From an uncultured Acidobacteriota bacterium (lineage in GTDB: Bacteria > Acidobacteriota > Blastocatellia > RBC074): a DNA stretch of 64,000 nucleotides. The notes under the pieces were generated by a model. It worked only from the letters and a program-made list of their open reading frames with translations, made no database searches and had not been told where the DNA came from. Below, piece after piece: positions 4,231 to 47,663 of this stretch. The translations under genes were made by a program, and so were the position numbers. Each line of letters begins with the position of its first letter. Positions within the stretch are counted from its first letter, which is position 1. The stretch spans positions 2,205,352-2,269,351 of the forward strand of contig OY969418.1 in assembly GCA_963699175.1 (NCBI GenBank), read 5' to 3'.

Positions 4231-7200
4231 TTAAATGTACTTGGCCAAGACCGCCCGCACGGCCTCCGGGTCGTAAAACTCCTTCACCAACTCTTCCGCG
4301 CGGTAGCCGAGCAACTGGCCCGGCGCGGTGTAGCCGAGGTAGCGCATGCCTTCGGGGCTGCCATCGAAGCGCCCATCCGGCAACAGATCAAGCCACGCGC
4401 CGGGGCCGAAGCTGTAGCGATACAGGAAAGTCTCGCCCCGTTCATAATCCCAGAACTGCAAGCGTCCGGCAGCGCCCGCCGCGACCAGATATTTGCCGTT
4501 TGGCGCAAAAGCGACAGCTTCCACTGACCCCAGATTTCCTGCGAGCGTGCACAGCAGCTTCCCGTCGCACACCTGCCAGAGCCTGACCTTTGCATCAGCA
4601 CTGCCCGAGGCCAGCGTCAAGCCATCGGGCGCAAAGACGACCGAACTCACCTCGTGGGAGTGCCCGACGATTTCGCGCAGCAGCTTGCCGTCGCGCACCT
4701 GCCAGAGCCTGACCTTTTTGTCAGCACTGCCTGATGCCAGCGTCAAGCCATCGGGCGCAAAGGCGACCAACTTCACTGGTAAGGAGTGGCCGGTGAGTTC
4801 GCGCAGCAGCGAGCCATTGCGTACTTGCCAGAGTTTGACCGAGTTGTCATCACTGCTCGAAGCGAGTGTCGCACCATCGGGCGCAAAGGCGACCGCCCTT
4901 ACCCCAGAAGAGTGGCCGGTGAGTTCGCGCAGCAGCTTGCCGTCGCGTACTTGCCAGAGTTTGACCGAGTTGTCATCACTGCTCGAAGCGAGTGTCGCAC
5001 CATCGGGCGCAAAGGCGACCGCCCTTACCCCAGAAGAGTGGCCGGTGAGTTTGCGCAGCAGCTTGCCATCGCGCACCTGCCAGAGCTTGACCGAGCCGTC
5101 ACCACCGCCCGAAGCGAGCGTCGCGCCATCGGGCGCAAAGGCGACCGCATTCACCCTGCCGGAGTGGCTCGCGAGTTCGCGCAACAGCGTGCCATCGCGC
5201 ACCTGCCAGAGCTTGACCGAGCCGTCACCACCGCCCGAAGCGAGCGTCGCGCCATTGGGTGCAAAGGCGACCGCATTCACCCTCCCGGAGTGGCCCCCGA
5301 GTTCGCGCAACAGCGTGCCATCGCGCACCTGCCAGAGCTTGACCGAGCCGTCACCACCGCTCGAAGCGAGCGTCGCACCATCGGGCGCAAAGGCAACTAC
5401 AGTCACCCAATCTAAGTGACCCGCGAGTTCGCGCAGCATCGCGCCATCGCGCACCTGCCAGAGCTTGACCGAGCCGTCATCATCGCCCGAAGCGAGCGTC
5501 GCACCATCGGGCGCAAAGGCAACCGCCCTTACCCAATCTGAGTGGCCCGCAAGTTCGTGCAGCAGCGCGCCATTGCGTACTTGCCAGAGCTTGACCGAGT
5601 TGTCATCACTGCTCGAAGCGAGTGTCGCACCATCGGGCGCAAAGGCGACCGCCCTTACCCCAGAAGAGTGGCCGGTGAGTTTGCGCAGCAGCTTGCCATC
5701 GCGCACCTGCCAGAGCTTGACCGAGCCGTCACCACCGCCCGAAGCGAGCGTCGCGCCATTGGGTGCAAAGGCGACCGCATTCACCCTGCCGGAGTGGCCC
5801 CCGAGTTCGCGCAACAGCGTGCCATCGCGCACCTGCCAGAGCTTGACCGAGCCGTCACCACCGCCCGAAGCGAGCGTCGCGCCATCGGGCGCAAAGGCGA
5901 CCGCATTGGCTGCTTCACCGCCGCCCAACACTTGCAACAACATCCCATCGCTTGCGCGGTAAAGTCGAATCATTCCTTCTCTGTCACATTCGGCCAATAG
6001 TTTGCCATCGCTGCTGTAGGCTAAAGCGAGAATGGAACCTGTCGCACCCAGTTGGACAACCGGGCGCATTTCGCGAGTATCAATGGTGAAGAAGGGCCAA
6101 CCCGTCACCCCTATGAGCACAGCTTGGCGATAATCAGCCCCTGCCAGCCGGGCATTTTCCGTATTGGCTTCAGTTAGGTTGGCTGAGCGCAAATCAGCGC
6201 GGTCGAGCACGGCGTGGCCGAGCTTCGCTTTGGTCAAGTCCGCTCCGGCCAAGTTGGCTTCGGTCAAATCCACACTTTCCAGCACGGCTTCCTGCAATTG
6301 CGCGCCCGCCAATTGCGCACCCGGCGGAACGCGCCCAGCCAGGGCTTGCCGCAACTTTTCGACAGCGCCAATCTCTTCTTCCATCCCGGCGCGGATGCGG
6401 GCGCTCCAATACAGAATTTGCAGCGCGTTTTCCGACACGTTGGCTTGATAAGCTGCGCGCAAAATCTCTTGCAGCGGTTCGCGCAACGCATCCTGCTCAT
6501 CCAGCAGCGCCAGGAAATAGATGGTCTTCTGATCGTAGCGCCGCGTGTTCAGCATCTCGCGCAAGCCGACGGGATCGGCCAAACAATCCTGCAAACGGCG
6601 GGCGAGGAAAAATTCGCCGAACGAGCGGTGCATAAACGTGAAGTTGCCCGCATTGTCGCGTTTGAGGAAACTGGCGCTCTGCAATTCGACGGCGATGTCC
6701 GCCGCCTCTTCATCGCCAAGCTCAAGGCGTTGGTCGGCCACCAGCCGTTCGATAAAGGGGCAGAGTTCTTTGAAATGCGCCGCCTGCGTCGCATCGCGCC
6801 ACATCCGCCAGCCGAGTTCCAGCATCAAGGCCAGCCGCGTCTGTTTCCCCAAGCTGAGTTTGCGCCCCTTGCTGTCTTCACGGTCAATCCAGATGTTGGT
6901 GTAGACGTTGTAAAGATTGGCGGCATTGACCTGCTGCCCGGCTTTTAGACGCGGCAAGGATTTGACGATCATATCCAGCAACAGCGGGCGCGTGGCCAGG
7001 TCTTTCAGATTGTAGATGGCTTGAATCTTCTGCCAATCTTTTGCGTGGTCTTGCGGGCGGGCTTTCTTCAGATAATCCTTGATTTGATCGTCATTGAATT
7101 CCTGCAAATAGACGACCTCGGCGCTCGAACGCTGCCGCAAATCGCGGTAAAGCTCGGTCTCTGTTTCGGAAAGAGTCGGGCCTTCGCCGATGACTTTGAC

Positions 7201-8622
7201 CTGTTCGGTGCGATCTTTGAAATAATGCGTGCGACAGGTGATGACGATCTTGCCGCGCGCTTCGGCCAGGCGGCTCAACTGGCGGAAATTATCCTGCGTC
7301 ACATCCCAACGCACGCGGTCGGCCATCTCGTCAAAGGCATCGAAGAGCAACACGACCTTGCCCAGCCGCACCAGATGCTCGAAGCGCGGGAAGCTGATGT
7401 CGCGCAAGCCGCGCAATTGAAAGTGGCGGCTGACGACACTTTCCAGCGTCTCTTCCTTGCGCACATCCTTGAGCGGAATCAACACCGGCGCGGGATGGCG
7501 CAACGGGTCATCGTGAAAACTGCGCGCCAGTTGGTAAGCCAGAAAACTCGCCAGCGTCGTCTTGCCCGTGCCCAAATCGCCGAGGATGACCATCTGATTA
7601 CGACGCTCATCGCCCAACCATTTGCCGACGTGCGTCAAGGCGGGCAGCTTTTCGTAAACAATGTCGGTCACCAGATCAGGCCGAATAAACCAGTCGTCAC
7701 CCTGCCATTTGGTCTTGGCCTCTTCTTCATAGTCCGCGACCAGCCCGTCAACATAGCTGTCTAGCGGCACCAACTCGCGCAACAGTTCAGCGTAGGTGAT
7801 GCAATGCACGCCCGCCGCTTCCAACGCTGTGCGCGTCTCGGCGGCAAAGCCCTGCGCCGAGACGGCCACGGTGCGGAAGGCAGGCAGCTTCTGTTGCGTC
7901 ATCAACCGTTGCGCCAGAATCTGGTCGCGTTCCTTCGCTGTAATCTGCTTGTCTTTGCATTCGACGATGGCGCTGGTGGGCAGGCCGCCGACCTTCTGTT
8001 CAATCGTCAAATCAATCTGCATCCCGCTCAGATTGCTGTCCTGTTTGGCATCGAAGCCGAGCAGCCGGTAAAGCGTCGCCACTTCGTCTTCAAAGCGTTT
8101 GCCCGCCGCGTAATTCTGTCGGCCACGCGCCGCCGGATCGAGTTTGTGTTCGCGGAACTCGAACTCTTCGCGCTCGCGGAATTGGAAGCCGTGGCGCGGC
8201 AGGTCTAGGGCTTCGACCAGTTGGCGCAGGCGCAAGTCGAAATCATCGTCGTTGCGGAAATCAATATGCAGGATGCCGCGCAAGGTCGGCTCGACCGCGC
8301 AGTCTTCGAGCAGCAGCGGAATCAGCGGGCGTTCTTTCGAGAGAATGTCAGCGGAGTGTTGCGCGAAAGCTTCGGCGCGCGTCCATTCTTTCTTGACGCC
8401 GAAGTAGCTGCGGCTGAAGACGGCGACCAGCTTGCGCGCTTGTTTCAAACCTTCGTTGATGCGTTCCAGCAGATTGTCGCCGGGTCGCAATTCCCACCGG
8501 TCGAACCACACGCGCACGCCTTCGTCGCGCAAGCGCGTGGCCAGCCGCTCGCACCAATCCCCATCCTCGCGCGCGTGACTGAGGAACGCATCGTAGGGTT
8601 TGTCGTTCTCGTTCTGAGCCAT
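4231..8622 (-). CDS. NLR-like STAND protein: TIR, PD-(D/E)xK (Mrr-like) nuclease, NACHT P-loop NTPase, pentapeptide repeats, ~14 WD40 repeats
   Basis: AGGAGG RBS 7 nt upstream. N-terminal YDAFLSHAREDGDW...FSRSYFGVKKEWTRAE; the W-x3-E matches the TIR catalytic-glutamate motif. GMQIDLTIEQKV...IVECKDK has a D...E-x-K spacing. Walker A VILGDLGTGKTT and Walker B VVLLFDAFDEM. AQLAGAQLQEAVLESVDLTEANLAGADLTKAKL pentapeptide repeats. 42-aa WD40 units (SVKLWQVRDG...HSxxVxAVAFAPDGATLASGGGDG) repeated about 14 times. Confidence 0.85.
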   Translation of the reverse strand: MAQNENDKPYDAFLSHAREDGDWCERLATRLRDEGVRVWFDRWELRPGDNLLERINEGLKQARKLVAVFSRSYFGVKKEWTRAEAFAQHSADILSKERPLIPLLLEDCAVEPTLRGILHIDFRNDDDFDLRLRQLVEALDLPRHGFQFREREEFEFREHKLDPAARGRQNYAAGKRFEDEVATLYRLLGFDAKQDSNLSGMQIDLTIEQKVGGLPTSAIVECKDKQITAKERDQILAQRLMTQQKLPAFRTVAVSAQGFAAETRTALEAAGVHCITYAELLRELVPLDSYVDGLVADYEEEAKTKWQGDDWFIRPDLVTDIVYEKLPALTHVGKWLGDERRNQMVILGDLGTGKTTLASFLAYQLARSFHDDPLRHPAPVLIPLKDVRKEETLESVVSRHFQLRGLRDISFPRFEHLVRLGKVVLLFDAFDEMADRVRWDVTQDNFRQLSRLAEARGKIVITCRTHYFKDRTEQVKVIGEGPTLSETETELYRDLRQRSSAEVVYLQEFNDDQIKDYLKKARPQDHAKDWQKIQAIYNLKDLATRPLLLDMIVKSLPRLKAGQQVNAANLYNVYTNIWIDREDSKGRKLSLGKQTRLALMLELGWRMWRDATQAAHFKELCPFIERLVADQRLELGDEEAADIAVELQSASFLKRDNAGNFTFMHRSFGEFFLARRLQDCLADPVGLREMLNTRRYDQKTIYFLALLDEQDALREPLQEILRAAYQANVSENALQILYWSARIRAGMEEEIGAVEKLRQALAGRVPPGAQLAGAQLQEAVLESVDLTEANLAGADLTKAKLGHAVLDRADLRSANLTEANTENARLAGADYRQAVLIGVTGWPFFTIDTREMRPVVQLGATGSILALAYSSDGKLLAECDREGMIRLYRASDGMLLQVLGGGEAANAVAFAPDGATLASGGGDGSVKLWQVRDGTLLRELGGHSGRVNAVAFAPNGATLASGGGDGSVKLWQVRDGKLLRKLTGHSSGVRAVAFAPDGATLASSSDDNSVKLWQVRNGALLHELAGHSDWVRAVAFAPDGATLASGDDDGSVKLWQVRDGAMLRELAGHLDWVTVVAFAPDGATLASSGGDGSVKLWQVRDGTLLRELGGHSGRVNAVAFAPNGATLASGGGDGSVKLWQVRDGTLLRELASHSGRVNAVAFAPDGATLASGGGDGSVKLWQVRDGKLLRKLTGHSSGVRAVAFAPDGATLASSSDDNSVKLWQVRDGKLLRELTGHSSGVRAVAFAPDGATLASSSDDNSVKLWQVRNGSLLRELTGHSLPVKLVAFAPDGLTLASGSADKKVRLWQVRDGKLLREIVGHSHEVSSVVFAPDGLTLASGSADAKVRLWQVCDGKLLCTLAGNLGSVEAVAFAPNGKYLVAAGAAGRLQFWDYERGETFLYRYSFGPGAWLDLLPDGRFDGSPEGMRYLGYTAPGQLLGYRAEELVKEFYDPEAVRAVLAKYI
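4490..5900 (-). repeat. tandem 126-bp near-identical coding repeats (WD40 blades) inside the NLR-like gene
   Basis: Blocks such as 4862-4990, 4988-5116 and 5620-5750 are almost identical at the nucleotide level. Antisense and out-of-frame ORFs in the track (4493..5419, 4786..5415, 5465..5962, 5542..6000) are artefacts of this periodicity. Confidence 0.8.
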
Positions 8623-8703
8623 CGGCGCGCCTCCTGAGTCGGGTTAAAGCAGTACTGCCGAGGGCTGCAAATTATCATCAAGTGCGTGGGATGGGAAGCC
8701 CAA

Positions 8704-8880
8704 AGCCTGGGTACGCACGCTTCCAGCGTGCCAAGCTCTGGGTGAGACGGAAGGCAAGAGCAAGAACCACTCGGCTCGCTTGATTGATTGGCAGATCGAA
8801 GTGGGGGATAAGTTGATCGCGTTACCCTGATGCGCTCGCCTTCCCAAACGGGGCACGCTGGAAGCGTGCGTACCCAGGCT
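8704..8880. repeat. 29-bp perfect inverted repeat flanking a ~119-bp spacer (palindromic element, family Y)
   Basis: agcctgggtacgcacgcttccagcgtgcc (8704-8732) and its exact reverse complement (8852-8880). The right arm overlaps the stop of the upstream gene. The core AGCCTGGG..GCGCACGC recurs at 19366. Confidence 0.5.
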
Positions 8881-9316
8881 AAGGTTTACGTGGCACGCTC
8901 TTCGGTTTGTTAGTCTCTTCGGGTTTGGCGGGCGAAGTCTCTTTAGGCTTTTCAGCCTTTTGCACCGCCGCCAAGCGTTCCGTCAACCGGTCAACTTCTT
9001 TCTGCATGTCCAACATCTGCTTTTGCAAATGGACTATCTGTTGCCCGTGGTCGAATAGTTGGCGCTGCAATTCGAGCACTCGCTCTTGGCTGTAATTGCT
9101 TGTGCTGCCCGTGTTGAGCGACTGGTTCTGCTGCGAGCGCTCGACGTAATCAAGTCTCGTTTGCATCTGATCTACGCGGCGTTCCAGGTTCATCAAGCGA
9201 AAGCTTTGATCCTGGCCAAAGCGCGTGGCCGCACCCAACGATAGCAGACTCAAACACAACAAACCCGTGAGCGCCGTGCGCCAATTACGTTTGATGGGAA
9301 ATCTCATTGCTCTCAA
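8879..9316 (-). CDS. secreted coiled-coil protein, hypothetical
   Basis: Signal-peptide-like N-terminus MRAMRFPIKRNWRTALTGLLCLSLLSLGAA. Heptad-rich, Q/E/L-rich middle. Lys/Pro-rich tail. Confidence 0.45.
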   Translation of the reverse strand: MRAMRFPIKRNWRTALTGLLCLSLLSLGAATRFGQDQSFRLMNLERRVDQMQTRLDYVERSQQNQSLNTGSTSNYSQERVLELQRQLFDHGQQIVHLQKQMLDMQKEVDRLTERLAAVQKAEKPKETSPAKPEETNKPKSVPRKP

Positions 9317-9488
9317 CCTCCATTGCTGTCATCAGCGTGCTTTACTGAAACCAATTTGTTAGTCTTCTGCGTCTACTGAACGTGACAGTTCTGGCACAAC
9401 TGGTTTCCGAATTGCAAGCCCTAGCAATCTGCCGTTTGCGACGGGAGACATCAAAGCAGGAATGCACGCCTGCGACTAAATCGAATTG

Positions 9489-9575
9489 GTGCGGTACAGG
9501 GAGCGGTAGCGACCTGCTGGATTCGTGAGGTGCACGCTCCCGCAGTACCAGGTCGCTACCGCTCCCGTACCGCAC
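9489..9575. repeat. palindromic intergenic element, family X copy 1
   Basis: gtgcggtacagggagcggtagcgacctg ... caggtcgctaccgctcccgtaccgcac; ~28-bp arms with a 32-nt loop. Confidence 0.6.
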
Positions 9576-9597
9576 CTGCTTCCTACAGAGGACTTCG

Positions 9598-12466
9598 TTT
9601 GAAGAAATTAGCGGCTCGCTTTTGGAGCGTAATTTTACTCATAGTCTTTAGCTCCGCGGCAATTGCCGCACAATCAAGCGAGATTTTACGCGGGCAGATC
9701 GTTGATGAGCTGAGCGACGTTATTCCCGGTGCGCAGCTCACGCTGACGGCAACCGGCGGCAAGCAACTCACTGCCGTCAGCGATGCCAACGGCGAATTCA
9801 CGCTACTACACGTCGCGCCCGGCGTTTACACACTGACCGTCACCGCCGAAGGCTTTCAGCCCTACAATGAACGCGAACTGCGTTTACCGCCCAAACCGCC
9901 GCTGCTCAAACTCACGCTGAAAGTCGCCGCCGTCAACATCGAAACCGAAGTCAAAGCCGATGAACCGGGCGTTTCCGTCGAGCCGGATCAGAACATGGAT
10001 GCGATTGTGTTAGGCGAAGACTTCATCGAGACCCTGCCTGACAATGAAGATGATCTGCGCGAATACTTGCTGATGCTGGCTGGCCCCGGCGCGGCTGGCG
10101 CGGCGGGCGGACAGGGCGGCGCGCAGATTTACATCAACGGTTTTCGCGGCGGACGCTTGCCGCCGCGCGAAGCCATCCTGCAAGTACGCATCAACCAAAG
10201 CCCCTTCTCCGCCGAATTCGAGCGTCCCGGCGCGGGCCGCGTAGAAATCATCACCAAGCCGGGCAACAACGAATGGCACGGCGGCTTCGGCGCGAACTTC
10301 CGCAACTCGGCGCTCGACGCGCGCAACGCGTTTGCGGCGGTCAAACCTGAGTTGGAGCAGAAGCGTTATTCGTTCAACCTGAGCGGCCCGCTGATTCGCA
10401 AGCGCATGTCGTTCTTCGCCAACCTGGAACAACGCCACTTGATCGGCAGCGGGACGGTGCGCGCTGAAACGCTCAGCGGGCCGTTCGTCGCCAACGTGGC
10501 CGCGCCCAACGAGAGCGCCTATTTCAGCGCGCGCGCTGATTATCTGCTCAATCAGAAGAACACTATCAACCTGACCTACTCGCGCTCTTCGTCCGAAGCG
10601 CTAAACCGCGAATTCGCCGCGCGGCTCGCTAGCGGCGGGACGAGCAACTTCACCTTGCCCGAACGCGCTTCGAGTTCCGACGATGTGAATCACACGTTGC
10701 AACTGGCCGAGACCTGGCTCATCAGCGCGCGGCTGATTCACGAGTCGCGCTTGCGCTTGCAATACGACGAGCGTCATCTGCGCGCCAATACACAGGGCTA
10801 CGCGGTCAACGTACTCGATGCGTTTTACGGTGGCGGCGCAACCTGTTGTCCCAACAACTCGCGCCAATTCACAGCAGAGTGGCAGGACTATCTGACTTAC
10901 ACGCGCAAGCGGCAGACCCTGCGCGGCGGCGTGCAGGTCGAGTACAACCGGCAGAACGATTTCAGCGCGAGCAATTTCAACGGTACTTACACCTTCTCCA
11001 GTCTCGATCAATATCGCCGCGCATTGACTGACCCGCAAGCGCGCGCCACTCAGTTCACGCAGAGCCTGGGCAATCCGCGTTTGCGCTACGACCTTTATCA
11101 AGCCGCGTGGTTTGTGCAAGACGACGTGCGTTTGCGGCAAGGCCTGACGCTCTCGTTCGGCTTGCGCCACGAATTCCAGTCGCATTTGGAAGACAAGCTG
11201 AATTTCGCGCCGCGCTTCGGCGTGGCTTGGTCGCCCTTCAAAGATCGCAAGACGACTTTGCGCGTGGGCGCGGGGATTTTCTACGCGCGGCTGACGGGCG
11301 GAGTTTATAACACCACGCTGCGCTACAACGGCATAACGCAACAGAGCATCATCATTCCCACGCCGCTCTTCCCCGATCCCTTCGCTGGCAATCCGAACAT
11401 CCGGCAAAGCAGCGCCATCCGCTGGCTGCTTGCGCCGGAGTTGCAAGCGCCCTACGTCATCAATTTCAACGGAACGGTCGAGCGGCAATTGACGCGCTCA
11501 GTGGTCACGACCTTTGGCTACCACTTCACGCGCGGCGTACATCAATTTCGCGCGCGCAACATCAACGCGCCGCTGCTTGATGGCGTGCGCCCTGATCCAA
11601 CGCAAGGCAATCTCTTTCAGATCGAATCTTCCGCCGCCTCGCAATATCACGGCCTGCAATTCCGGCTGGATCGTCGCCTGGGGCGTAGCTTCACAGCTTT
11701 CGGTAGCTATGCGCTGGCGTGGACGCAGAGCGATGCCGACGGCCCAACGTTCTTTCCGGCGAACAGCTACAATCTGCGTGATGAATGGAGCCGCGCGTTG
11801 ATTGATCGGCGGCACAATCTCTACATCGGCGGCAGTCTGCGTTTGCCCTACGGCTGGCGTGTTGCGCCGACTGTTAATGCATATTCCGGCACGCCGTTCA
11901 ATATAACGACAGGGCGCGACGAGAACGGCGATTCGCGCCTCAACGACCGCTTTGTCGGCGTCGGGCGCAATGCTGATTTGCTGGCGAGCCTTTATCCGAG
12001 TTTGCCTGATCGCTGTCTGCTCAATTGCAGCGCGGGCAGTCAACCAATCAATCTCCGCGATTTTCTCATTGCCAATTTCCCGAACGGCGTGCGTGCCGAA
12101 GGGCCGGGTTACTTCAGCGCCAATCTGAGCGTCACTAAAACCATTGGCTTTGGCCACCGCAAAGCGAACACGACCGCAGCCAGGCCGGGCGCGACAAATG
12201 CCAAAAGCGCCGAGAAGCTCAACGCAAAGAGTGCAGGATTGAACGGTCAGAGCAAGCCCGGCAAAGTTGGTGGTCAGGCCAACGCGCCGAATAACAACAG
12301 CGAAGCACCGCGTTTCAACTTGCAACTCGGCGCACAGATCACCAATCTTTTCAACCGCGTCAACTTCGGACAATACAGCGGCGTGCTGACCTCGCCGTTT
12401 TTCGCGCGGGCGAACAGCGCCAGCACAGCGCGCCAGTTTGAGTTTACGTTGCGTTTCGGTTTTTGA
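9598..12466 (+). CDS. TonB-dependent outer-membrane receptor with N-terminal carboxypeptidase-regulatory-like domain
   Basis: The start probably lies downstream of the track start, at TTG 9598 (LKKLAARFWSVILLIVFSSAAIAAQ signal peptide, AGAGGA RBS). The track start at 9530 lies inside the palindromic element. CarboxypepD_reg-like ILRGQIVDELSDVIPGAQLTLTATGG...GEFTL. ~950-aa beta-barrel ending ...FEFTLRFGF. Confidence 0.8.
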
Positions 12467-32033: not shown

Positions 32034-34277
32034 CTATTCGCCACGCACGTCCAGTTCACCTTCAATCAAATCTACTGAGAAGTTGTTGAAGGCTTTCCAC
32101 AGATTGGTAATCGGCAACTTGACCTTCTCGTCAATCGTGCGCTTCAGGAAGCGCGCGCCATAAGCCGGGCTGAAACCAAGCTCGACCACCTTGTCAATTG
32201 CCACCTCGCTGATGCGCAGCACCTTGCCCTGGCGCTCCATCTGTTGCCGTATGTTGCCCAGGTAAAGCAAGGCGATCTGTTTGACTTCGTCTTGCGTAAG
32301 CGGCGAGAAGACTACGATCTCGTCAATGCGGTTGCGGAACTCCGGCGAGAAGCGGTTTTCGGCAGCCTGGATGACGGCGCGTTTGATCTCTTCGACCTCG
32401 GCGGTCGTCTTGTTGCCGAAGCCGAGCGGTTTCATGTACTTCTTGAAATTATCGCTCCCCAGGTTGGAAGTCATGATGATGATCGCGTCGGACAAGTAGA
32501 CCTTCTTCCCGCGTCCGTCGGTCAGCCAGCCTTCATCGAAGGCTTGCAAAAACAGGTTGAGCAAGTAGGGCGAGGCTTTCTCGACTTCGTCCAGCAACAA
32601 GACGGTGTAGGGATTCTCGCGCAGCCGCTCGGTCAAAATGCCGCCGCGTTCGCTGCCGACGATACCGCGCGGCATGCCGATGAGCTTTTCGATGGCGACT
32701 GTGCCGTCGCTGTATTCGCTCATATCAATCCGCACCATCTTGTGCTCGTCGCCGAACATGGCTTCGGCCACGGCTTTGGCCAGTTCGGTCTTGCCGACAC
32801 CGGTCGGGCCTAAGAAGAGCAGCACGCCGTCAGGTTTGTAGAAGTTCTCTTTGAGCGGGCCTTTGTTCAAGCGCAGCCGTTGCGCGACGGCCCTAACCGC
32901 ATCTTTCTGGCCGATGACGCGGTGGCCTAATACATCTTCGAGACTTTTGAAACGATCCGAAGTGTCGCGGAAGATCAGGTCACGCGGGATGCGCGACTCT
33001 TGCGAGATCACATCAATGATGTGCTCCGGCTTGACCTGCATGATGCTCGGCTCGTTGATCTCGACTTTGACAGCAGCCGTGTCCAGCCAACCGATCACTT
33101 TGTCGGGCAGATGTAGGTTGCGGATGTAACGCGGCGCCATCTCCAACGCCGTGTCAATCGCGGCGTCGGTGATTTTGACCGAGTAGTTCTTTTCCAGCCG
33201 CGGGCGAACGCCATTCAAAATCTGGCGCGTTTCATTCAACGATGGTTCGTCTACTTTGACCAAGCGGAAGCGGCGCGCCAAGGCTTCGTCCTCAGCGATG
33301 TATTCTTTGTACTCGGTCATGGTGGTCGCGCCAATAATGCGCAGTTCGCCACGCGCGAGTGCGCCCTTGAACATGTTGGCCGCATCGCTCGAAGCGCCGA
33401 GCGCCGAACCAGCGCCAATAATCGTGTGCGCTTCGTCAACGAAGAGGATCAGGTCGGTGCGTTCTTTGACTTCGGCGATGATGCCTTGCAGCCGCTCTTC
33501 GAACATGCCGCGCAGCATTGTACCGGCAACGATGCCGGACATCTGCAACTGCACGATGTGGGAGTTACGTAACCGTGCGGGAACCTTCTCCGGTTCGAGT
33601 TCGATCAAGCGTGCGAGGCCTTCAACCACGGCGGTCTTGCCCACGCCCGGTTCACCGACGAGCATTGGTGAATTGGCGCGCTCGCGGTGGCAGAGGATTT
33701 CGATCATCTGCTGGATTTCGCCTTCGCGCCCGATGGTCGGCGGCAGCTTGTCCTGGCGCGCGAGTTTATTGAGTGACGTGCCGAAGTGTTTCAGGTAAGG
33801 CGGAAGCTCATACTTCTTCCGTTGTGATTCGCTCTGCTCTTCACGCGTGCGAATGCTGGACGAGATAGTGTCTACGGCCTCTTGCGGATTGACGCCGAGA
33901 CGCCGCAGGATTTCTGCTGGCACGCCTGCCGGATCGGAGAACAAGGAAACGAACAGATCGAAGGATTCGATCTGTTGCCGCCCCTGCTGGCGCGCGCGCC
34001 GGAGCGAACGATTGAAGAGATCGCGCGCCGTGTCAGTGATGTACATCTTCTTGCCGACATACTGGCGATTCTTCATCAATTCCTGTTCGAGCAGATGCAC
34101 AACGGCGCGTGGCTCGATGCCGACCGATTGCATGGCCTCGCCGAAGAGTTGACTCTCAATCTCGCCCAGCGCGGTGAAGATATGCTCGACCGAAAGATAG
34201 TTGTGATCTCGGCGACGCGATTCTTCGATGGCCCGGTAGATTACCTTCTGGCCTGTCTCAGAAAACTTGTCAGTCAT
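32034..34277 (-). CDS. Clp/Hsp100 AAA+ ATPase, ClpA/ClpC type (two AAA domains, short linker)
   Basis: Start at MTDKFSETGQKVIYRAIEESRRRDHNYLSVEHIFTAL (Clp_N). Walker [18 protein letters not shown] and [17 protein letters not shown]. No long ClpB-type middle domain. Confidence 0.8.
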   Translation of the reverse strand: MTDKFSETGQKVIYRAIEESRRRDHNYLSVEHIFTALGEIESQLFGEAMQSVGIEPRAVVHLLEQELMKNRQYVGKKMYITDTARDLFNRSLRRARQQGRQQIESFDLFVSLFSDPAGVPAEILRRLGVNPQEAVDTISSSIRTREEQSESQRKKYELPPYLKHFGTSLNKLARQDKLPPTIGREGEIQQMIEILCHRERANSPMLVGEPGVGKTAVVEGLARLIELEPEKVPARLRNSHIVQLQMSGIVAGTMLRGMFEERLQGIIAEVKERTDLILFVDEAHTIIGAGSALGASSDAANMFKGALARGELRIIGATTMTEYKEYIAEDEALARRFRLVKVDEPSLNETRQILNGVRPRLEKNYSVKITDAAIDTALEMAPRYIRNLHLPDKVIGWLDTAAVKVEINEPSIMQVKPEHIIDVISQESRIPRDLIFRDTSDRFKSLEDVLGHRVIGQKDAVRAVAQRLRLNKGPLKENFYKPDGVLLFLGPTGVGKTELAKAVAEAMFGDEHKMVRIDMSEYSDGTVAIEKLIGMPRGIVGSERGGILTERLRENPYTVLLLDEVEKASPYLLNLFLQAFDEGWLTDGRGKKVYLSDAIIIMTSNLGSDNFKKYMKPLGFGNKTTAEVEEIKRAVIQAAENRFSPEFRNRIDEIVVFSPLTQDEVKQIALLYLGNIRQQMERQGKVLRISEVAIDKVVELGFSPAYGARFLKRTIDEKVKLPITNLWKAFNNFSVDLIEGELDVRGE

Positions 34278-34489
34278 CGAACCTAAGTCAAACACAATGT
34301 TTTCCTCACTACGATAAGCCTGCATTCAGGCGTGTTGTCTACCATTCCTTCTCTTGCTCCTGCCTGTCACAGCCTGCAACTGGCAAAGTAGCGAAGTGGC
34401 TTATTAGTTGTCAACAGCCGCTGATTGGTTGCCGCTGGCTGGTGGTCGAAACTGCTTGCCGACAGCCAGCTAACAGCAACGAATTAAAG

Positions 34490-36112
<1,623 letters not shown>

Positions 36113-36222
36113 TCAATTGTATTTAGAAATCTGACGGGATGTTTTGCTGACCAACAAGAATCACTTTCTTCAGTCTGGCAATCCTGTCGAACTCAAAAAC
36201 TGCGTTGTTTGAAATGAACGGC

Positions 36223-36918
36223 TCAACCGGTTGACCGCCCGACACGCACACGCGCCGGACGCAACAGTTTGTCACCATACTTGTAGCCGGGCTGAAACTC
36301 TGCCACGACGTGATTGTCCTGCTCAGGTGGAACGGCCACGATTTCGACGGCTTCGTGAAATTCGGGATTGAACTCCTCTCCTTCGCTCGTCACCGGGGTC
36401 AGCCCGTGCTCGCGCATCTTGGCGTCAAACAAGCTAGCCGTTGCTTTGACGCCATCGAGCAAGGCGCGGAACTCAGGCTCTTTGGACTCAGCCCGTTCCG
36501 CCGCCCAGACGGCGCGCCGCAAGTTGTCTAGTGTATCGAGCAGGCTGGCGATGATGTCGCCCTTGGCGGTGTCCAACCGCTGATCGTAATTGCGTTGCAG
36601 CCGCTGGCGCATGCCGTCGGTTTCGGCCTGCATCTTTTTCTGCGCCTGATTGAATTTCTCGGATACTTCGCGCAGTGTACGCTCGGCCTCTTCGCGCTTG
36701 CGCTCAGCTTCGGCTACCCGTTCGAGTAGTTGCGCAACTTCTGGGGCCTCGGCTTTTGGTGTTTCAGCTTTCGCTTCCGGGCCGATTGGCTCACCTTCAG
36801 CCGTAAAGCGGCGCTTGTCAGTCACTCGCACTTCCGCACTCTCTTTATCTTCATCGGTATGATCTGCCGCCGCACTGCGCGCAGCCTGATTTTCTTTGCC
36901 ATTTGACATAGCTAACAA
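36223..36918 (-). CDS. grpE: nucleotide exchange factor GrpE
   Basis: Coiled-coil N-terminal half and a C-terminal GrpE core (...FNPEFHEAV...PGYKYGDKLLRPARVRV). Confidence 0.8.
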   Translation of the reverse strand: MLAMSNGKENQAARSAAADHTDEDKESAEVRVTDKRRFTAEGEPIGPEAKAETPKAEAPEVAQLLERVAEAERKREEAERTLREVSEKFNQAQKKMQAETDGMRQRLQRNYDQRLDTAKGDIIASLLDTLDNLRRAVWAAERAESKEPEFRALLDGVKATASLFDAKMREHGLTPVTSEGEEFNPEFHEAVEIVAVPPEQDNHVVAEFQPGYKYGDKLLRPARVRVGRSTG

Positions 36919-37072
36919 AAACCTTACCCCCCCATGTAAGATTGGTTGTTACTCCACTTCAATAACGAATAGGCAATCTATCATCGGCCACTATGGTTTG
37001 CAATAAGCCCCTTTGTCGCAAGAGGAGCGCAGTGCGCGCCGGTAATCACCGCCCTGCTCTTCCACTTTCGAC

Positions 37073-39676
37073 TCAACCGCGCGCCGCTACGCTTTGCTCC
37101 GGCACAAAGAGCATCTGCCCTTGCTCCAGATCACCTTTGACCACTAAGGTGTCGCCCGGCTTGATCTCACCACTTAGCAGCTTCATCGCCAGCGGGTTTT
37201 GGATCAGCCCTTGAATCGCCCGCTTCAAGGGACGTGCGCCAAAGACCGGGTCGTAACCCTCGTGTGCCAGCACTTCTTCCGCCGATGGGTCGAGCACCAG
37301 CGTAACCTTGCGGTCAGCCAACAATTTGCGCAACGCTTCGAGTTGAATCTTGATGATTTCCCGCAATTGCTCCAAACCCAACTGCCGGAAGATGATGACC
37401 TCGTCAACCCGGTTCAGGAACTCAGGCTTGAAGTGCCCGCGCAAACGTTCCATTACGCTCTCCTGCATCGCCTCCTCGTCGCCTTCCCACTCCTGAATCT
37501 CGCGCGAGCCGAGGTTCGAGGTCATAATAATGACGGTGTTTTTGAAATCCACCGTCCGCCCCTTGCCGTCGGTCAACCGCCCGTCGTCCAGGATTTGCAA
37601 CAGGATGTTGAAGACGTCCGTGTGCGCCTTCTCGATCTCATCAAAAAGCACCACTGAGTAAGGCCGTCGCCTGACCGCCTCCGTCAGATAGCCGCCCTCG
37701 TCATAGCCGATGTAGCCCGGCGGCGCGCCGATCAAACGCGCGACCGAATGTTTCTCCATAAACTCCGACATATCCAGCCGCACCATCGAGTGCTCATCAT
37801 CAAAGAGGAACTCGGCCAACGCCCGCGCCGTTTCGGTCTTACCGACACCCGTCGGCCCCAGGAAGATGAACGAGCCGACCGGTCGCTTCGGGTCTTGCAA
37901 GCCCGCGCGCGCACGGCGCACAGCATTCGCCACCGCGATCAAAGCATCCTCTTGCCCAACTACACGCATGCCCAGCCGCTCTTCCATCTTGACCAGCTTC
38001 TGCAACTCACCTTCGAGCATCTTCGAGACTGGCACACCCGTCCAGCGCGCCACAACCTCGGCCACGTCCTCTTCCGTGACTTCTTCTTTCAACGTGCGCC
38101 CCGCCTGTTGCAATTCGGCCAGTCGCGCTTGATCAGCCTCGAACTGTTTTTGCAACTCGGTCATCTGGCCGTAGCGAATCTCCGCCACCTTGCCGTAATC
38201 GCCTGCCCGCTCGAACTTCTCCGCTTCGACCTTCAGCGCCTCCATCTTCTCTTTCGCGCCCCGGATGCGCTCGATAACTTCTTTTTCAGATTGCCACTTG
38301 GCTTTCATAGCACCGGACTTCTCGCGCAGGTCAGCAATCTCTTTCTCGACCTTCGCCAGCCGTTCTTTCGAGACTACATCTTCCTCGCGCAATAGCGCCT
38401 GCCGTTCGATCTCGCGCTGGATGATCTCGCGCTCGACTTCATCAATCTCAGTTGGCAAAGAATCAATCTCAATGCGCAACTTCGACGCCGCCTCGTCAAT
38501 CAGGTCAATCGCCTTGTCCGGCAAAAACCTATCAGTGATGTAGCGCTGCGACAAAGTTGCCGCCGCCACAATCGCCGCGTCTTTGATGCGCACGCCGTGA
38601 TGCGTCTCGTACTTGTCTTTCAAGCCGCGCAAGATCGCAATCGTATCCTCCACGTTCGGCTCGCCAATGTAGACCTGCTGGAAGCGGCGCTCTAACGCTT
38701 TGTCCTTCTCGATGTACTTTTGATATTCGTTGAGCGTCGTCGCGCCCACACAGCGCAGTTCTCCGCGTGCCAGCGCAGGCTTCAACATATTCGACGCGTC
38801 CACTGCGCCTTCCGCAGCGCCCGCGCCCACCAGCGTGTGCAACTCGTCAATAAAGACGATGACCTGCCCCTGCGCCTTCTCGACTTCGCGCAAGAACGAT
38901 TTCAAGCGTTCCTCGAATTCGCCACGATACTTCGCGCCAGCGAGCATCGCACCCAAATCCATCGAAACTACCCGCTTGTTCTTCAAGGTTTCCGGCACGT
39001 CACCCGAGACGATGCGTTGGGCCAAGCCTTCGACAATCGCGGTCTTGCCCACGCCCGGCTCGCCGATCAGCACCGGATTGTTCTTCGTGCGCCGCGACAG
39101 GACTTGAATCGTGCGGCGAATCTCGTCATCGCGCCCGATCACCGGATCGAGCTTGCCCGCGCGCGCTAACTCGGTCAGGTCGCGCGAGTATTTCGCTATC
39201 GCTTGATACTGCTCTTCCGCGTTCTGCGACGTGACCCGCGCGCCCGCGCGCATCCCTTCGATTACCTTGAGCAAACCGTCGCGCGTCACGCCGTGCGCGC
39301 GCAGCAAGCGTCCCGCCTCCTGCTTGTCTTCGACCAGCGCCAGCAGCAGATGCTCAGTCGAGATAAACTCGTCCTTCAGCTTGTCGGCTTCCTTCTGCGC
39401 CTTGCCAAACACATCGGTCGTACGGTTGCTGTAATACCGCTGGCCGAAGCCGCTTACTTGTGGGAACTTCTTGATCGCCGCTTCGACTTCCGGCGCGAGC
39501 GTCTGCACGTTGACGCCGATCTTGCCCAACATCGGACGAGTCACGCCTTCTCCCTGTTCGATCAGCGCGGCCAACACGTGTTCCGGCTCGACCTGCTGGT
39601 GATTTTGCTTTTCGGCCAGGGCGACGGATGACTCAATCGCCTCCTGCGCTTTCAAGGTGAATTTATCTAACCTCAT
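37073..39676 (-). CDS. clpB: chaperone ClpB
   Basis: Start at [17 protein letters not shown] with GGAGGAG 5 nt upstream. Two AAA modules ([34 protein letters not shown]) separated by a long coiled-coil M-domain. Confidence 0.9.
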
Positions 39677-39895
39677 CTCACTCCTCCTCAAACAAATGTA
39701 CTGGCAAATTTACTAGCAACCTTACTGGGCAACCTTACTGGGCAACCAGCGTTCGACCGTAAAAAGAAGCGGCCACGAATTGAACTGCACAAACACGAAC
39801 GATCTGGAGGACTCCCTAATCTTACGCTTCGTGCTCGCGCGTGCCAATTCGTGGCCGGGCTGCAAGGCAATCAATTTTGCTTGGCCAGCCGCCGC

Positions 39896-43120: not shown

Positions 43121-46100
43121 ATGCCAAGAACAAGTTTTTCCCAGCGTTGCCTGACCGCGCTGACATTGGCCGTCGCCCTGATCGCGCTTTCGTTGACGGC
43201 CTTGGCGCAGACCAACGCGCGCATCGCCGGCACAGTCAAAGATCAGACCGGCGCGGTTGTGCCCAACGCCACCATTACCGTGAAGAATACACGCACTGGC
43301 GAAGAGCGCACCTCCACCAGCAATGGTGACGGCGTGTTTATCGTGCCCGCGCTCAAGCCCTCGGTTTATAACTTACAGGTAACCGCGGGCGGTTTCGCCA
43401 AGACTGAATACACCAACATTGAACTGGTCGTCGGCCAGGCGCTCGACCTGGATGCAGAGTTGAAACCTGTGGGCGCTAGCGAAACCATCAATATCGCCGC
43501 CGGTGAAGAGGCCGCACTCGATACGTCATCAGCGCGCATGGGCGCGAACGTGAATGAGACTGAAGTCAAAAGCCTGCCGCTCAATGGCCGCCAGTTGTCG
43601 CAGCTCTATCTGCAAGCGCCCGGCTCGCTCAACAGCGGTTCAGGCACCTTCGGCGACATTCGCTTCAGCGGGCGCGCAGTAGAACAGAATGCAGTTCGTT
43701 ACGATGGCGTCGAAGGCTCGGCCATCATTGACGCCAGCCCGGGCAATTTGAACGGTGAGATCGCTTCGCCCTTCCGGCTGCAAGCCTCTTTGGAAAACGT
43801 GCAAGAGTTCCGCGTGGATTCCAACAGCTATCCGGCGGAGTACGGCACGGGCACGGGCGGACAGGTCAACGTCGTCACCAAATCCGGTTCGAACAGGTTT
43901 CACGGTTCGGTCTTTGAGTATCTGCGCAACGACAAGCTCGATGCGCGCAACTTCTTTGACCGTGACTTCAAATCAAAACTGCGGCTCAATCAATTTGGCG
44001 CATCGCTGGGTGGGCCAATCGTCAAAGACAAGTTCTTCTTCTTTGGCAGCTACGAAGGCTATCGCGTGCGTTCGGGCATCAACATCGTGGAAGGCGTGCC
44101 GAAATTGTCGCGCTGCGCCACGGCTGTCGCGGCGGTGCGCCCGTTGTGTGAAGGCGCGTTTCTGGCTACGGGTGGAATTCGCATCGTGACCGACCCTAAC
44201 ACCAGCCCGGATTTCGACATCGGCCAGTTGCTGGCCAGCAATCCGGTCAATGAAAACTCCGGCGCTGTGCGCTTTGATTTCAAGCCTAATGCCAACAATT
44301 CATTCTACGTGCGCTTCTTCCGCGACCAGGGCGACAATGATCAGCCGCAGAACGTTTCCGGCGCGCGTGCGGTTTACAAATATGTGCCGCAAAATGGCGT
44401 CGCCGCCTGGCAAACCACTATCGGCAGCACCAAGATCAACGAGGTCAAGCTGGGCTACAACTCGGCTTACACGCGTGTGGCTGGCTTCGCGCCAACCATT
44501 GGCGGGATTGACCTCTCAGCGGTGACGCTCAACCTTTCTGGCAGTGTCGCGCTCGCGAATATTCCCGGCCAGGGCAATTCAGCCGGTCTCTCGATTCCGG
44601 GCGGGCTGTTCCGCCTCAATTCGGCGACCAACGGACGCGGCGCGCCGTACACGCCCTACACCATCGGCTTGTTTGATAACTTTAGCTGGTTGCGCGGCAA
44701 TCATTCGCTCAAGTTCGGCGGCGAGTTGCGTTTCATCCGGCTCTATACGGATCGGCTCGGTGGTACGACTTACTCTTACTCGAATCTAGCCAGCTTCCTG
44801 ACCAACACTGCGGCCACTGTGCAATATGCCGGGGACGTAAGCGCTCCCAGCGCATTCAACAACGGCGCAACCGGCCAGCGTTTTGCCAAGCAGGAGTACT
44901 ACATCGCCTACGCGCAGGACGAGTGGAAGATCAAATCGAATCTGACCTTCAACTACGGACTGCGTTATGAGTTCTACTCGCCGTTGCGCGAGGATCAGGA
45001 TCGGCAAGTGGTCTTTGACATTGATAAAGGCGTGATCTTGCCGTCGGACACGACTGTCTATAAAGCCTTGAAGACCAACTTTGCGCCGCGCTTGGCGCTG
45101 ACCTGGTCGCCCAATGAAAAAGGCACGGGCTTTTTCGGCGGCGGCAGGACGGTCATTCGCGGTGGCTTCGGCCTCAACTACGGCCCCGGTCAGACTGAAG
45201 ACCAGATTCAGCCGATTGAATCCGACCGCGTCAGCTCAACGCTGAGCAACGTGACCAATGCGTTCCCGGCCAATATCGCAACGATCGTGGCCAACTTCAA
45301 CGCCAATCCCAACAATCGTTCTTACCAGCCGCGCGCTTACGACCGCGCCAATTACGAAGTGCCGGAGCGCGTCTTCTCCTACTCGGTTTCGCTCCAACAG
45401 GAACTGCCCTATAAATTGGCGCTCACGCTTGCTTATGTGGGCAGCCAAGGGCGCAACCTCTTCCTGCGCAGCGTGGCCAATCAGATCACGCAGGTCTTGA
45501 CCAACGTCAACCCGGCCAACGCGGCCATCGTCATCCGCGAATTCTCCATCGTTACGCCGGGCGCAGCAGGCCAGAATCCGACTGTGCTCAATCCGTTTGC
45601 CGAAGTTGACTACAAACGCAGCGGCGGGCACGACAGCTACAACGCCTTACAGATGACGCTGGCGCGCCGCTTCAACAGCGGTGTGACGCTTAACGCGCAA
45701 TACACTTTCGGGCGCAGCTACGGCAACACTGCCGGCTCGAACGAAGCTTTGACGGCGGGCAACATCGCGCGCAAGACGGCGGACTTCGATTACGACGATG
45801 GCTACAACAACTTCGACGTGCGCCATACATTCAACGTCAGCGCCATCTACGCGCTGCCCTGGGGCAAGTCTCTGACAGGCATCCACAAGACGCTGCTCGG
45901 CGGTTGGGAGGTCGGCACGATCATGAACTCGCGCAGCGGCATCCCCATCCCGGTGCAGGTCACGCGCCCGGACATCATTTATGTGGATGCGGCAGGTCTC
46001 TACTACGGCAACCCGGCGGCTGGTCGCACGGCGGTAATCAACACGCCGGGCGGCGGCAATTCACGCAATGTGCGCCGTCCTGATCTGCTTCCCGGCGTTA

Positions 46101-46492
46101 GTCCGTTCCTCAATCAGGATCGTACGATCCTCAATCCAGCGGCCTTTGCGATTCCGAAGCCTGGCACGTACGGCAATCTCGAGCGCAACTCGATACACGG
46201 GCCGAGTTTCTTCCAACAAGACTTGATCGTGGCCAAGAAGTTCGCCATCACCGAGTCGGTCAACCTCGAATTCCGCTCGGAGTTCTTCAACATCTTCAAC
46301 GTGACGAACTTTGCCAATCCACCCGCGCAGTTGCCCAACACTTACGGCGCTGGGGCGACATTGCAACCCGGGCAGCCTTTCACGACGGCACTGGCAGGCA
46401 GCGCCTTCGGCGTGGTCAATCGCACCGTAGAGCGTGTGGTCGGCTTGGGCACGAACCGGCAGATTCAGTTCGCACTGCGGCTCAATTTCTAA
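43121..46492 (+). CDS. TonB-dependent outer-membrane receptor with N-terminal carboxypeptidase-regulatory-like domain
   Basis: GGAGAGGA RBS. Signal peptide. NARIAGTVKDQTGAVVPNATITVKNTRTGEERTSTSNGDGVFIVPALKPSVYNLQVTAGGF (CarboxypepD_reg). 1123 aa ending ...QFALRLNF. Confidence 0.85.
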   Translation: MPRTSFSQRCLTALTLAVALIALSLTALAQTNARIAGTVKDQTGAVVPNATITVKNTRTGEERTSTSNGDGVFIVPALKPSVYNLQVTAGGFAKTEYTNIELVVGQALDLDAELKPVGASETINIAAGEEAALDTSSARMGANVNETEVKSLPLNGRQLSQLYLQAPGSLNSGSGTFGDIRFSGRAVEQNAVRYDGVEGSAIIDASPGNLNGEIASPFRLQASLENVQEFRVDSNSYPAEYGTGTGGQVNVVTKSGSNRFHGSVFEYLRNDKLDARNFFDRDFKSKLRLNQFGASLGGPIVKDKFFFFGSYEGYRVRSGINIVEGVPKLSRCATAVAAVRPLCEGAFLATGGIRIVTDPNTSPDFDIGQLLASNPVNENSGAVRFDFKPNANNSFYVRFFRDQGDNDQPQNVSGARAVYKYVPQNGVAAWQTTIGSTKINEVKLGYNSAYTRVAGFAPTIGGIDLSAVTLNLSGSVALANIPGQGNSAGLSIPGGLFRLNSATNGRGAPYTPYTIGLFDNFSWLRGNHSLKFGGELRFIRLYTDRLGGTTYSYSNLASFLTNTAATVQYAGDVSAPSAFNNGATGQRFAKQEYYIAYAQDEWKIKSNLTFNYGLRYEFYSPLREDQDRQVVFDIDKGVILPSDTTVYKALKTNFAPRLALTWSPNEKGTGFFGGGRTVIRGGFGLNYGPGQTEDQIQPIESDRVSSTLSNVTNAFPANIATIVANFNANPNNRSYQPRAYDRANYEVPERVFSYSVSLQQELPYKLALTLAYVGSQGRNLFLRSVANQITQVLTNVNPANAAIVIREFSIVTPGAAGQNPTVLNPFAEVDYKRSGGHDSYNALQMTLARRFNSGVTLNAQYTFGRSYGNTAGSNEALTAGNIARKTADFDYDDGYNNFDVRHTFNVSAIYALPWGKSLTGIHKTLLGGWEVGTIMNSRSGIPIPVQVTRPDIIYVDAAGLYYGNPAAGRTAVINTPGGGNSRNVRRPDLLPGVSPFLNQDRTILNPAAFAIPKPGTYGNLERNSIHGPSFFQQDLIVAKKFAITESVNLEFRSEFFNIFNVTNFANPPAQLPNTYGAGATLQPGQPFTTALAGSAFGVVNRTVERVVGLGTNRQIQFALRLNF

Positions 46493-46808: not shown

Positions 46809-47663
46809 ATGACCGGCAAGCAGTATCGTTTCCTTTTCCTCACCATCCTTTGGTTGAGTGGCCTGTGCCTCACAGGTTATGCGCAAAGCTCGCGCACGGA
46901 GTCTGCCGCTTCGTACCGTGCGCGCGGTAATCAATACTTACAACAAGGTGAATGGGAACGCGCGGTAGCGGATTACAGCCTAGCCATCGTGTTTGACCCG
47001 CAAGATGCTCTGAGTTATCTCAATCGCGGCATGGCGAAGTTTGAAATGCACGATCTGCCGGGCGCGATCAACGATTACAGTCGTGCGCTGACGTTGCAAC
47101 CACAGTTGGCGCAAGCTCCCTACAATCGCGGGCTGGCGCGCAAGGCGCAGGGTGATTTGGACGGCGCGTTGGCCGATTTCGATTTGGCATTACAACTGCA
47201 ACCACATTTGGCCGAAGCCTACAACAATCGCGGCAACGTGCGGCGGAGCAAAGGCGATCTAGCGGGTGCATTGAGCGATTACGCAGAGGCGCTCAAACTC
47301 AATCCGAAGCTCGCCGAAGTCTACAACAATCGCGCCAACATTCGGTTCGCTACGCGCGACTTGCACGGTGCGTTGAGCGATTACGAACAGGCGCTCAAAC
47401 TCAACCCGCAGTACGCAACGGCTTATCACAATCGCAGTCTGGTGCGGAAAGCGTTGGGAGATATTCAGGGCGCACTCAATGACCTCAATCAAGCTCTCGC
47501 ACTCGACCCGCAATTGCCGGATGCTTATCTGCAACGTGGCTTGCTCTACTGGCAGCAAGGCCAGCGCGAAGTGGCACAAAACGATTTTGACGAATGCGTG
47601 CGGCTCGCTCCGAATTTGCAAACGACGATTGAACGCCGTATGGCACAGAGCAACACACGCTGA
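46809..47663 (+). CDS. secreted tetratricopeptide-repeat protein
   Basis: Signal peptide. Seven tandem 34-aa TPR units (A..Y..RG....GDL.GAL.DY..AL.L.P). Confidence 0.75.
   Translation: MTGKQYRFLFLTILWLSGLCLTGYAQSSRTESAASYRARGNQYLQQGEWERAVADYSLAIVFDPQDALSYLNRGMAKFEMHDLPGAINDYSRALTLQPQLAQAPYNRGLARKAQGDLDGALADFDLALQLQPHLAEAYNNRGNVRRSKGDLAGALSDYAEALKLNPKLAEVYNNRANIRFATRDLHGALSDYEQALKLNPQYATAYHNRSLVRKALGDIQGALNDLNQALALDPQLPDAYLQRGLLYWQQGQREVAQNDFDECVRLAPNLQTTIERRMAQSNTR

Follow-up and report, generated by a model that had tools for sequence, protein, structure and literature searches.

Concerted evolution of a WD40 repeat array in a bacterial NLR-like STAND gene with TIR and Mrr-like domains

On the minus strand of the 64-kb stretch of contig OY969418.1 that we analysed (referred to as the window), a complete open reading frame (ORF) at 4231..8622, known from the ORF list and its translation, specifies a predicted NLR-like STAND protein of 1463 amino acids (aa), in which 11 of the 14 WD40 blades are encoded by tandem copies of a 126-bp unit. 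Comparison with orthologues showed that this 11-blade array has been shaped by concerted evolution, independently in each orthologous lineage, and that three cap blades (the first, the penultimate and the last) escape homogenisation. The interpretation that we favour, with a probability of roughly 0.75, is that recombination keeps these central 11 of 14 blades of a TIR/Mrr-like/NACHT/pentapeptide/WD40 STAND protein alike, with the variable sites among them acting as a putative sensor surface.

Tandem Repeats Finder (TRF) called the repeat at 4552-5905 with a period of 126, 10.7 copies, 86% matches and 0% indels, and a second repeat search found 11 copies, all in register, at a spacing of exactly 126 bp. 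Together with identity matrices and a codon table, these searches define eleven 42-aa WD40 units, u1-u11, at 4549..5934 on the minus strand (u1 at 5809-5934, u11 at 4549-4674), in agreement with an initial annotation of this DNA, which had described WD40 blades encoded by 126-bp tandem repeats. The caps lie outside the array on the same strand. The first blade (aa 855-896, 5935..6060) is recognisable across orthologues, and its same-codon use relative to the repeat units is 0.09; the penultimate blade (GRLQFWD; aa 1359-1400, 4423..4548) is diverged, with 40-50% nucleotide (nt) identity to the units; and the last blade (LLPDGRF), which together with the C-terminal helices occupies aa 1401-1463 (4234..4422), is the most conserved blade between orthologues. 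Counting in codon register thus gives 14 blades in total (first, 11 array units, penultimate and last), the same number as annotated initially.

The units are not all equally alike. The initial annotation had put the whole of about 1.4 kb at more than 90% nt identity, which is true of two groups, u2/u6/u7 (94-98%) and u3/u8/u9 (95-97%), but not of the array as a whole, where only 6 of 55 unit pairs exceed 90% and the mean pairwise identity is 81%. Its example pairs hold up, with 92.2% identity between 4862-4990 and 4988-5116 and 100% between 4988-5116 and 5618-5746, although the last of these had been given a start at 5620, which is 2 nt off register. At the protein level, identity is 90-98% within u2/u6/u7 and 93% within u3/u8/u9, each group covering 126 aa. 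Divergence is greatest in the units at the edges, u1, u10 and u11 (mean nt identity 74-78%), as expected if homogenisation arises from unequal exchange, and u1 is without the GH dipeptide (it reads GGGEAANAV). A stretch of close likeness in the array runs across units: a 295-nt tract at 4961..5255 (minus strand; part of u8, the whole of u7 and part of u6) recurs at 5591..5885 (part of u3, the whole of u2 and part of u1), offset by 630 bp or five units. The two copies are 98.6% identical (4 mismatches) and cross two unit boundaries, marking a recent multi-unit duplication or conversion. Within this tract lies the longest exact repeat, of 169 nt (4961-5129 and 5591-5759), and exact matches of 107 and 94 nt also occur within the array. 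A BLASTN search of the 64-kb window, the part of the genome that it covered, found the repeat unit nowhere else.

The plus-strand ORFs at 4493-5419, 4786-5415 and 5465-5962 were considered as genes and rejected as antisense shadows of the array; they have a 42-aa periodicity of their own, and automatic callers could mis-annotate them.

The likeness between units is one of DNA and not only of protein. Where two units carry the same residue, they use the same codon in 79.5% of pairs, where the codon usage of the remainder of the gene predicts 43.5%, while the penultimate blade, taken as a control, stays at its expectation (43.8% versus 44.4%). Nucleotide identity between units is higher than their aa identity, and the proportion of synonymous differences (pS) is 0.03-0.09 inside the unit subfamilies, 0.22 overall for u2-u9 and 0.2-0.35 between subfamilies. 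The array is therefore similar at the nucleotide level, beyond chance and protein-level constraint, as had been proposed initially. The outcome named at that time as one that would refute the proposal, blades alike in protein sequence only, is clearly not what the array shows.

We used the non-repeat N-terminal 862 aa as the query for orthologues and found 97 relatives of the same architecture, in bins labelled Blastocatellia or Acidobacteriota, Anaerolineae, Chthonomonadaceae, Phycisphaerae, Deltaproteobacteria and Verrucomicrobia, the nearest being Blastocatellia and other Acidobacteriota bins. In ten relatives, the middle units are 64-87% identical in aa sequence within a protein as against 38-67% between proteins, and the framework residues are lineage-specific (AVAFAPDGATLAS in the window, SVAFSPDGESLAS in orthologue P0017 and SVSLSGDGRLLAS in P0028). 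Third codon positions behave in the same way: their identity is 0.78-0.87 inside the individual arrays (those of the window, L003, L005, L007 and L008) and drops to 0.25-0.56 between loci, in genes that range from 40 to 61% GC; L002, in which an indel shifts the register, was excluded from the unit statistics. Between orthologues, the penultimate blade has a mean aa identity of 65% and the last blade one of 73%. Each orthologue examined, in several phyla, carries its own homogenised array at the same position and in the same 42-aa register. Units are thus more alike within a genome than between orthologues, synonymous sites included, and they cluster by genome, not by position, and this is how concerted evolution was defined operationally for the fungal nwd genes. 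The unequal recombination or concerted evolution postulated initially is in this way borne out by lineage-specific homogenised arrays between conserved cap blades, and it may still be under way within this species, as was also postulated. A metagenome scan for a 36-nt core of the repeat gave no match and therefore no alleles, and a 4-unit query for paralogues with the same repeat type picked up nothing but short fragments, none above 58% identity, in a search whose word prefilter missed even P0001, the protein identical to the window product.

Some relatives depart from the common architecture. P0009, P0012 and P0025, which have TIR, NACHT and pentapeptide regions, give Pfam matches to sigma-70 region 4 or an XRE helix-turn-helix (HTH) instead of WD40 blades, which points to exchange of the C-terminal module among family members. 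P0027 and P0031 have about 200 additional residues N-terminal to the TIR domain. The orthologue on L003, a 1.14-Mb nanopore Acidobacteriota contig, is split into ORFs at 5962-7386 and 7907-9442, through a frameshift, pseudogenisation or a homopolymer error, and is preceded at 5313-5864 by a 116/233-bp tandem repeat (the 233-bp period is 95% identical) with GC-rich hairpins.

Differences between units concentrate at a few positions of the 42-aa repeat. Seven orthologous arrays, taken without that of the window, have their entropy hot positions at 7, 8, 10, 26 and 28, and all five fall within the seven highest of the 42 entropies in the window (P = 2.5e-5). Of the differences between window units, 38% of the nonsynonymous and 13% of the synonymous ones sit at these five codons, and the ratio of nonsynonymous to synonymous proportions (pN/pS) is 2.35 at the five hot codons versus 0.34 at the other 37, as simple counts, uncorrected for recombination, on recombining paralogous units. 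An invariant Val9 stands between positions 8 and 10, and an invariant Asp27 between positions 26 and 28. In fungal HET-D/E, codons 7, 9, 25 and 27 are positively selected and flank the conserved codons 8 and 26 (Paoletti 2007, PMC1805685), so that with a register shift of one the hot positions 8, 10, 26 and 28 are the fungal 7, 9, 25 and 27. The initial suggestion of the same pattern as in fungal HET-E/NWD proteins thus extends to the hypervariable sites. In highly repetitive WD40 proteins, predicted interaction hotspots likewise are the variable sites (Hu 2017, PMC5587647), and we infer that the variable positions of the window protein would lie in loops of the top, presumably ligand-binding, face.

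The closest parallel is with the HNWD/NWD proteins of Podospora anserina (HET-D and HET-E, as well as HET-R; HET-NACHT-WD40; PMC1805685, PMC4986451). Both have a 126-bp (42-aa) unit that is homogeneous at the nucleotide level, with units grouping by genome rather than by position, both have four hypervariable codons flanking a conserved Val and a conserved Asp, and both are tripartite, with a death effector, NACHT and WD40. The effectors differ: the fungal proteins carry a HET domain, of which a Pfam scan found no match at the N-terminus of the window protein, whereas the bacterial gene encodes TIR and an Mrr-like nuclease and so falls outside the fungal HNWD family. HET is said to be possibly related to TIR (Dyrka 2014, PMC4986451). 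The window gene also adds a pentapeptide-repeat linker and conserved, non-homogenised cap blades. For the fungal genes, paralogue exchange, within-species polymorphism in repeat number and repeat-induced point mutation (RIP) enter the picture, and their function is allorecognition, whereas comparison for the window gene, which covered the 64-kb window and the orthologues, gave no evidence of any of these three processes. Dyrka 2014 also defines NLR repeats of high internal conservation (HIC) by more than 85% identity over at least 100 aa in total, and the u2/u6/u7 and u3/u8/u9 groups both lie above these values.

Among prokaryotic proteins, the best match in the Protein Data Bank (PDB), by sequence and by fold, is Npun_R6612 of Nostoc punctiforme (PDB 2YMU; PMC5587647), which is likewise 14-bladed and repetitive, although its repeats are of 41 aa and more uniform than the 42-aa window units. 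For the class of Highly-Repetitive WD40 proteins (Hu 2017, PMC5587647), in which variable sites coincide with predicted interaction hotspots as they do in the window, the threshold is an identity of at least 0.7; for the window protein the mean aa identity comes to 0.73 when the 11 array units are taken and to 0.52 when all 14 blades are, averages whose procedure may differ from that of Hu 2017. That study, moreover, stresses recent origin and stability, not concerted evolution of a sensor. An effector, NACHT/STAND and repeat-sensor layout is shared with the bacterial NLR-like STANDs of Dyrka 2020 (bioRxiv 10.1101/2020.01.06.895854), which include NLRs with WD and TPR units 80-90% identical; the emphasis there is on cyanobacteria and actinobacteria, whereas the window host is Acidobacteriota-like. 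With PMC5587647, that work already documents such repeats, as the initial annotation had said of some bacterial NLRs. WD40 propeller sensors are also recognised among defence-associated STANDs (bNACHT, Avs; PMC13581612), from which the window protein differs in having no full-length match to the curated defence models of PADLOC or NCBIfam. Finally, the STAND conflict systems of multicellular bacteria that are diversified by diversity-generating retroelements (DGRs; PMC10907252) are NLR-like with a hypervariable sensor too, but there retroelement mutagenesis acts on a C-type lectin-like target, whereas in the window gene diversity would arise by unit shuffling. DGR-type diversification was considered for this gene and rejected, as neither a reverse transcriptase nor a template repeat lies nearby.

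Pfam scans give the domain order of ORF 4231-8622 as TIR, Mrr-like nuclease, NACHT, pentapeptide repeats and 14 WD40 blades, all on the minus strand. The TIR domain, a putative NADase effector (aa 13-136, 8215..8586; PF13676, TIR_2, E 3.8e-30), has the glutamate of the W-x-x-x-E motif, which an alignment column shows to be kept in most orthologues. It is followed by an Mrr_cat-like PD-(D/E)xK nuclease domain (aa 174-282, 7777..8103), a weak assignment, the PF04471 score of 20.8 bits being slightly below the cutoff of 21; its motifs FEDEV, QIDL and VECK (E...D...ExK) are retained by most orthologues. The NACHT/nSTAND3 P-loop NTPase core (aa 340-503, 7114..7605; PF05729, 28.1 bits, cutoff 26.7) has an intact Walker A (GDLGTGKT) and Walker B (LLFDAFDEM), both invariant across 17 orthologues. 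Between this NOD module and the propellers, a pentapeptide-repeat linker (aa 768-830, 6133..6321; PF00805, E 2.4e-13), where TRF finds a 15-bp tandem repeat at 6295-6323, is retained in orthologues. The WD40 family itself (PF00400) matches in 12 stretches with E 1.8e-138, which together with the four-stranded blades modelled for the array (see below) makes the product a WD40 propeller protein. By its sequence the product is an NLR-like STAND protein with an effector, P-loop and repeat layout; the earlier identification as an NLR agrees with the TIR_2 match, the NACHT match above its cutoff, the intact Walker motifs, the pentapeptide repeats and the WD40 blades.

We consider the count of 14 blades probably correct, because P0001, the identical protein, sits on a 9,536,885-bp (9.54-Mb) contig, because the array is in frame without indels, and because 14 blades are also found in three orthologues (P0017, P0024 and P0028) and in 2YMU, a Nostoc highly repetitive WD40 protein with 14 repeats in two propellers (PMC5587647). 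The initial warning that the region is a likely assembly-collapse hotspot whose true count may differ was reasonable in general, since assembly of such NLR genes from short reads has been demonstrated to be unreliable (PMC12222747), but it probably does not apply to the number given here. The other orthologues have 13, 12, 11, 6, 5 or 4 blades; the low values among these stem for the most part from short-read bins and may reflect collapse. At the same time, L003 (nanopore, 1.14 Mb) and L005 (a hybrid contig) each have three array units of 87-89% mean nt identity and 6 blades, and as these are long-read or hybrid contigs, a short form of about 6 blades is probably real.

The top PDB matches to the array region are WD40 propellers, with 2YMU the closest solved structure (sequence match of 1035 bits; fold match E 3.9e-47 at 44% identity). 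An AlphaFold2 (AF2) model, built with a 22-sequence alignment (a single-sequence model with a confidence, pLDDT, of 44 was not used), has regular four-stranded blades, with pLDDT above 90 over most of the array; over the initial ~100 residues of the fragment that was modelled, confidence is low. The only propeller part with low AF2 confidence is u1 with the first blade (aa 840-940). For a possible 7+7 split of the 14 blades, Foldseek TMt values were 0.59-0.61 to 7-bladed designs and 0.65-0.70 to 8-bladed ones.

The units of the array have been duplicated, lost and converted repeatedly, by unequal recombination or replication slippage, and this has kept them alike. As to function, we infer that the gene may be a single-gene conflict or immune sensor: its product combines an effector, a NOD and a repeat sensor, has its catalytic motifs intact and carries a hypervariable putative binding face, and synteny around orthologues is not conserved. 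In such a model, the propellers would act as the sensor, and reshuffled units with different surface residues would make new binding surfaces. Ligand binding would release NACHT-driven oligomerisation, which in turn would activate the TIR NADase and/or the nuclease, and the resulting NAD+ depletion and/or DNA cleavage would kill or arrest the cell, perhaps as an abortive-infection or conflict response.

Several observations weigh against this interpretation. The gene sits among ordinary chromosomal genes (encoding a Kelch-like secreted protein, outer-membrane proteins of the TonB type, a sulfatase and sugar-acid enzymes), and the lack of a full-length match to a curated defence model counts in the same direction: PADLOC gave partial TIR- or WD40-level matches only, and the NCBIfam model DS8_antiphage scored 20.9 bits against a cutoff of 790. 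The pN/pS contrast is a counting estimate on recombining units, as distinct from a recombination-aware likelihood test, and the top-face placement of the hot positions is predicted from homology (Paoletti 2007; the WD40 hotspot rules in Hu 2017). Gly, Ser and Asp account for many of the variable residues and would make an unusually featureless surface. As for present-day polymorphism in unit number or order, our search found no second genome of the species, P0001 being a singleton cluster. Some of these points lend themselves to another explanation, namely that the protein is a signalling or scaffolding STAND rather than an immune sensor, its uniform repeats being idealised blades that give a more stable propeller. 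Highly repetitive WD40 proteins do have higher predicted stability and more hydrogen-bond tetrads (Hu 2017, PMC5587647), such a role has been proposed for many WD40 proteins of complex bacteria, the gene has no defence-island context and stands outside the validated defence families, and in some orthologues sigma-70 region 4 or an XRE HTH replaces WD40. Stability, however, cannot account for identity at synonymous sites, and a fixed scaffold needs the opposite of a hypervariable putative binding face. Moreover, an N-terminal TIR domain and PD-(D/E)xK nuclease with conserved catalytic motifs are typical death or abortive effectors, and synteny that is not conserved is usual in mobile conflict genes, so that we regard a scaffold as rather improbable.

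We think it somewhat less probable still that the arrays are young repeats, amplified once and recently in each lineage with no continuing exchange, their variable sites reflecting relaxed constraint on loops. Hu 2017 (PMC5587647) does read highly repetitive prokaryotic WD40 proteins as products of recent duplication, and this explanation can also draw on the pS between unit subfamilies, by which most units are not very recent copies. A homogenised array in every orthologue examined, however, could arise in this way only through many separate bursts, which amounts to ongoing turnover. Tracts of mixed age coexist (98.6% over 295 nt, unit pairs at 94-98% and others at 83-89%), the edge units are more diverged than the central ones, and pN exceeds pS at the hot sites, all of which argue against a single burst. 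An assembly artefact, with unit number or order wrong through collapse or expansion, seems very unlikely to us. It would fit the unreliability of short-read NLR gene assemblies (PMC12222747), the 4-14 blades of metagenome-bin orthologues, some of whose counts, for example 4, are implausible for a propeller, and an exact repeat of 169 nt that is longer than a typical short read. Against it stand the identical protein on a single 9.54-Mb contig, probably a finished genome, the in-frame array with 0% indels, the 14 blades common to three orthologues and the solved 2YMU, and the continuous four-stranded blades of the AF2 model at high pLDDT. As for convergence at the protein level, in which selection on the WD40 fold and codon bias would make units alike with no DNA exchange, a GC-rich genome and a biased use of codons (gene GC 0.61) speak for it, but same-codon use of 0.795 versus 0.435 with the control blade at expectation, the long exact matches, and nt identity in excess of aa identity refute it, and we give this idea almost no credence. 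Recombination between the units, with the variable sites as a putative sensor surface, remains our preferred interpretation.

The phenomenon as such is already described, in fungal NLRs (PMC1805685, PMC4986451), in prokaryotic WD40 proteins (PMC5587647) and in bacterial NLRs (Dyrka 2020); what may be new are particulars, namely that the homogenised cassette lies between fixed cap blades and that its hypervariable sites coincide exactly with the fungal ones. A broader proposal, which we put forward tentatively and at less than even odds, is that a multi-phylum TIR/Mrr-like/NACHT/pentapeptide/WD40 family shuffles a cassette of near-identical blades between fixed caps for fast new specificities, as a prokaryotic counterpart of HET-D/E, possibly switching between forms of about 6 blades and of 14 blades (two propellers). 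Highly conserved WD40 repeats with a hypervariable surface are the best-studied receptor generator based on repeat shuffling, with experiments in fungi only. The bacterial protein, which is compact, encoded by one gene and equipped with TIR and nuclease effectors that can be recognised, is a tractable candidate for work on how specificity depends on the combination of blades, and on whether repeat shuffling is an ancestral or a convergent feature of NLR-type immunity. In practical terms, repeat copy numbers of such genes in short-read bacterial assemblies and metagenome bins are not to be trusted.

Elsewhere in the window, two large outer-membrane proteins of the CarboxypepD_reg and OMP_b-brl_4 type are encoded at 9530-12466 and 43121-46492. 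This type is common in Acidobacteriota and fits the taxonomy of the nearest orthologues. A Cpn60-family chaperonin gene lies between two ClpB/ClpA-like AAA+ genes on the minus strand at 32034-39691. A phage-type integrase gene at 57182-58453 is followed by a Mu/IS21-like transposase gene (59125-60762; rve and Mu-transpos_C_2) flanked by 23/44-bp tandem repeat arrays (58991-59120 and 61566-61630), which may serve a mobile element as multiple terminal repeats for binding of the transposase. The TPR protein at 46809-47663, with a 102-bp (34-aa) unit at 80% nt identity (TRF, 47211-47408), is a further instance of internal repeats in the window, milder than the WD40 array.

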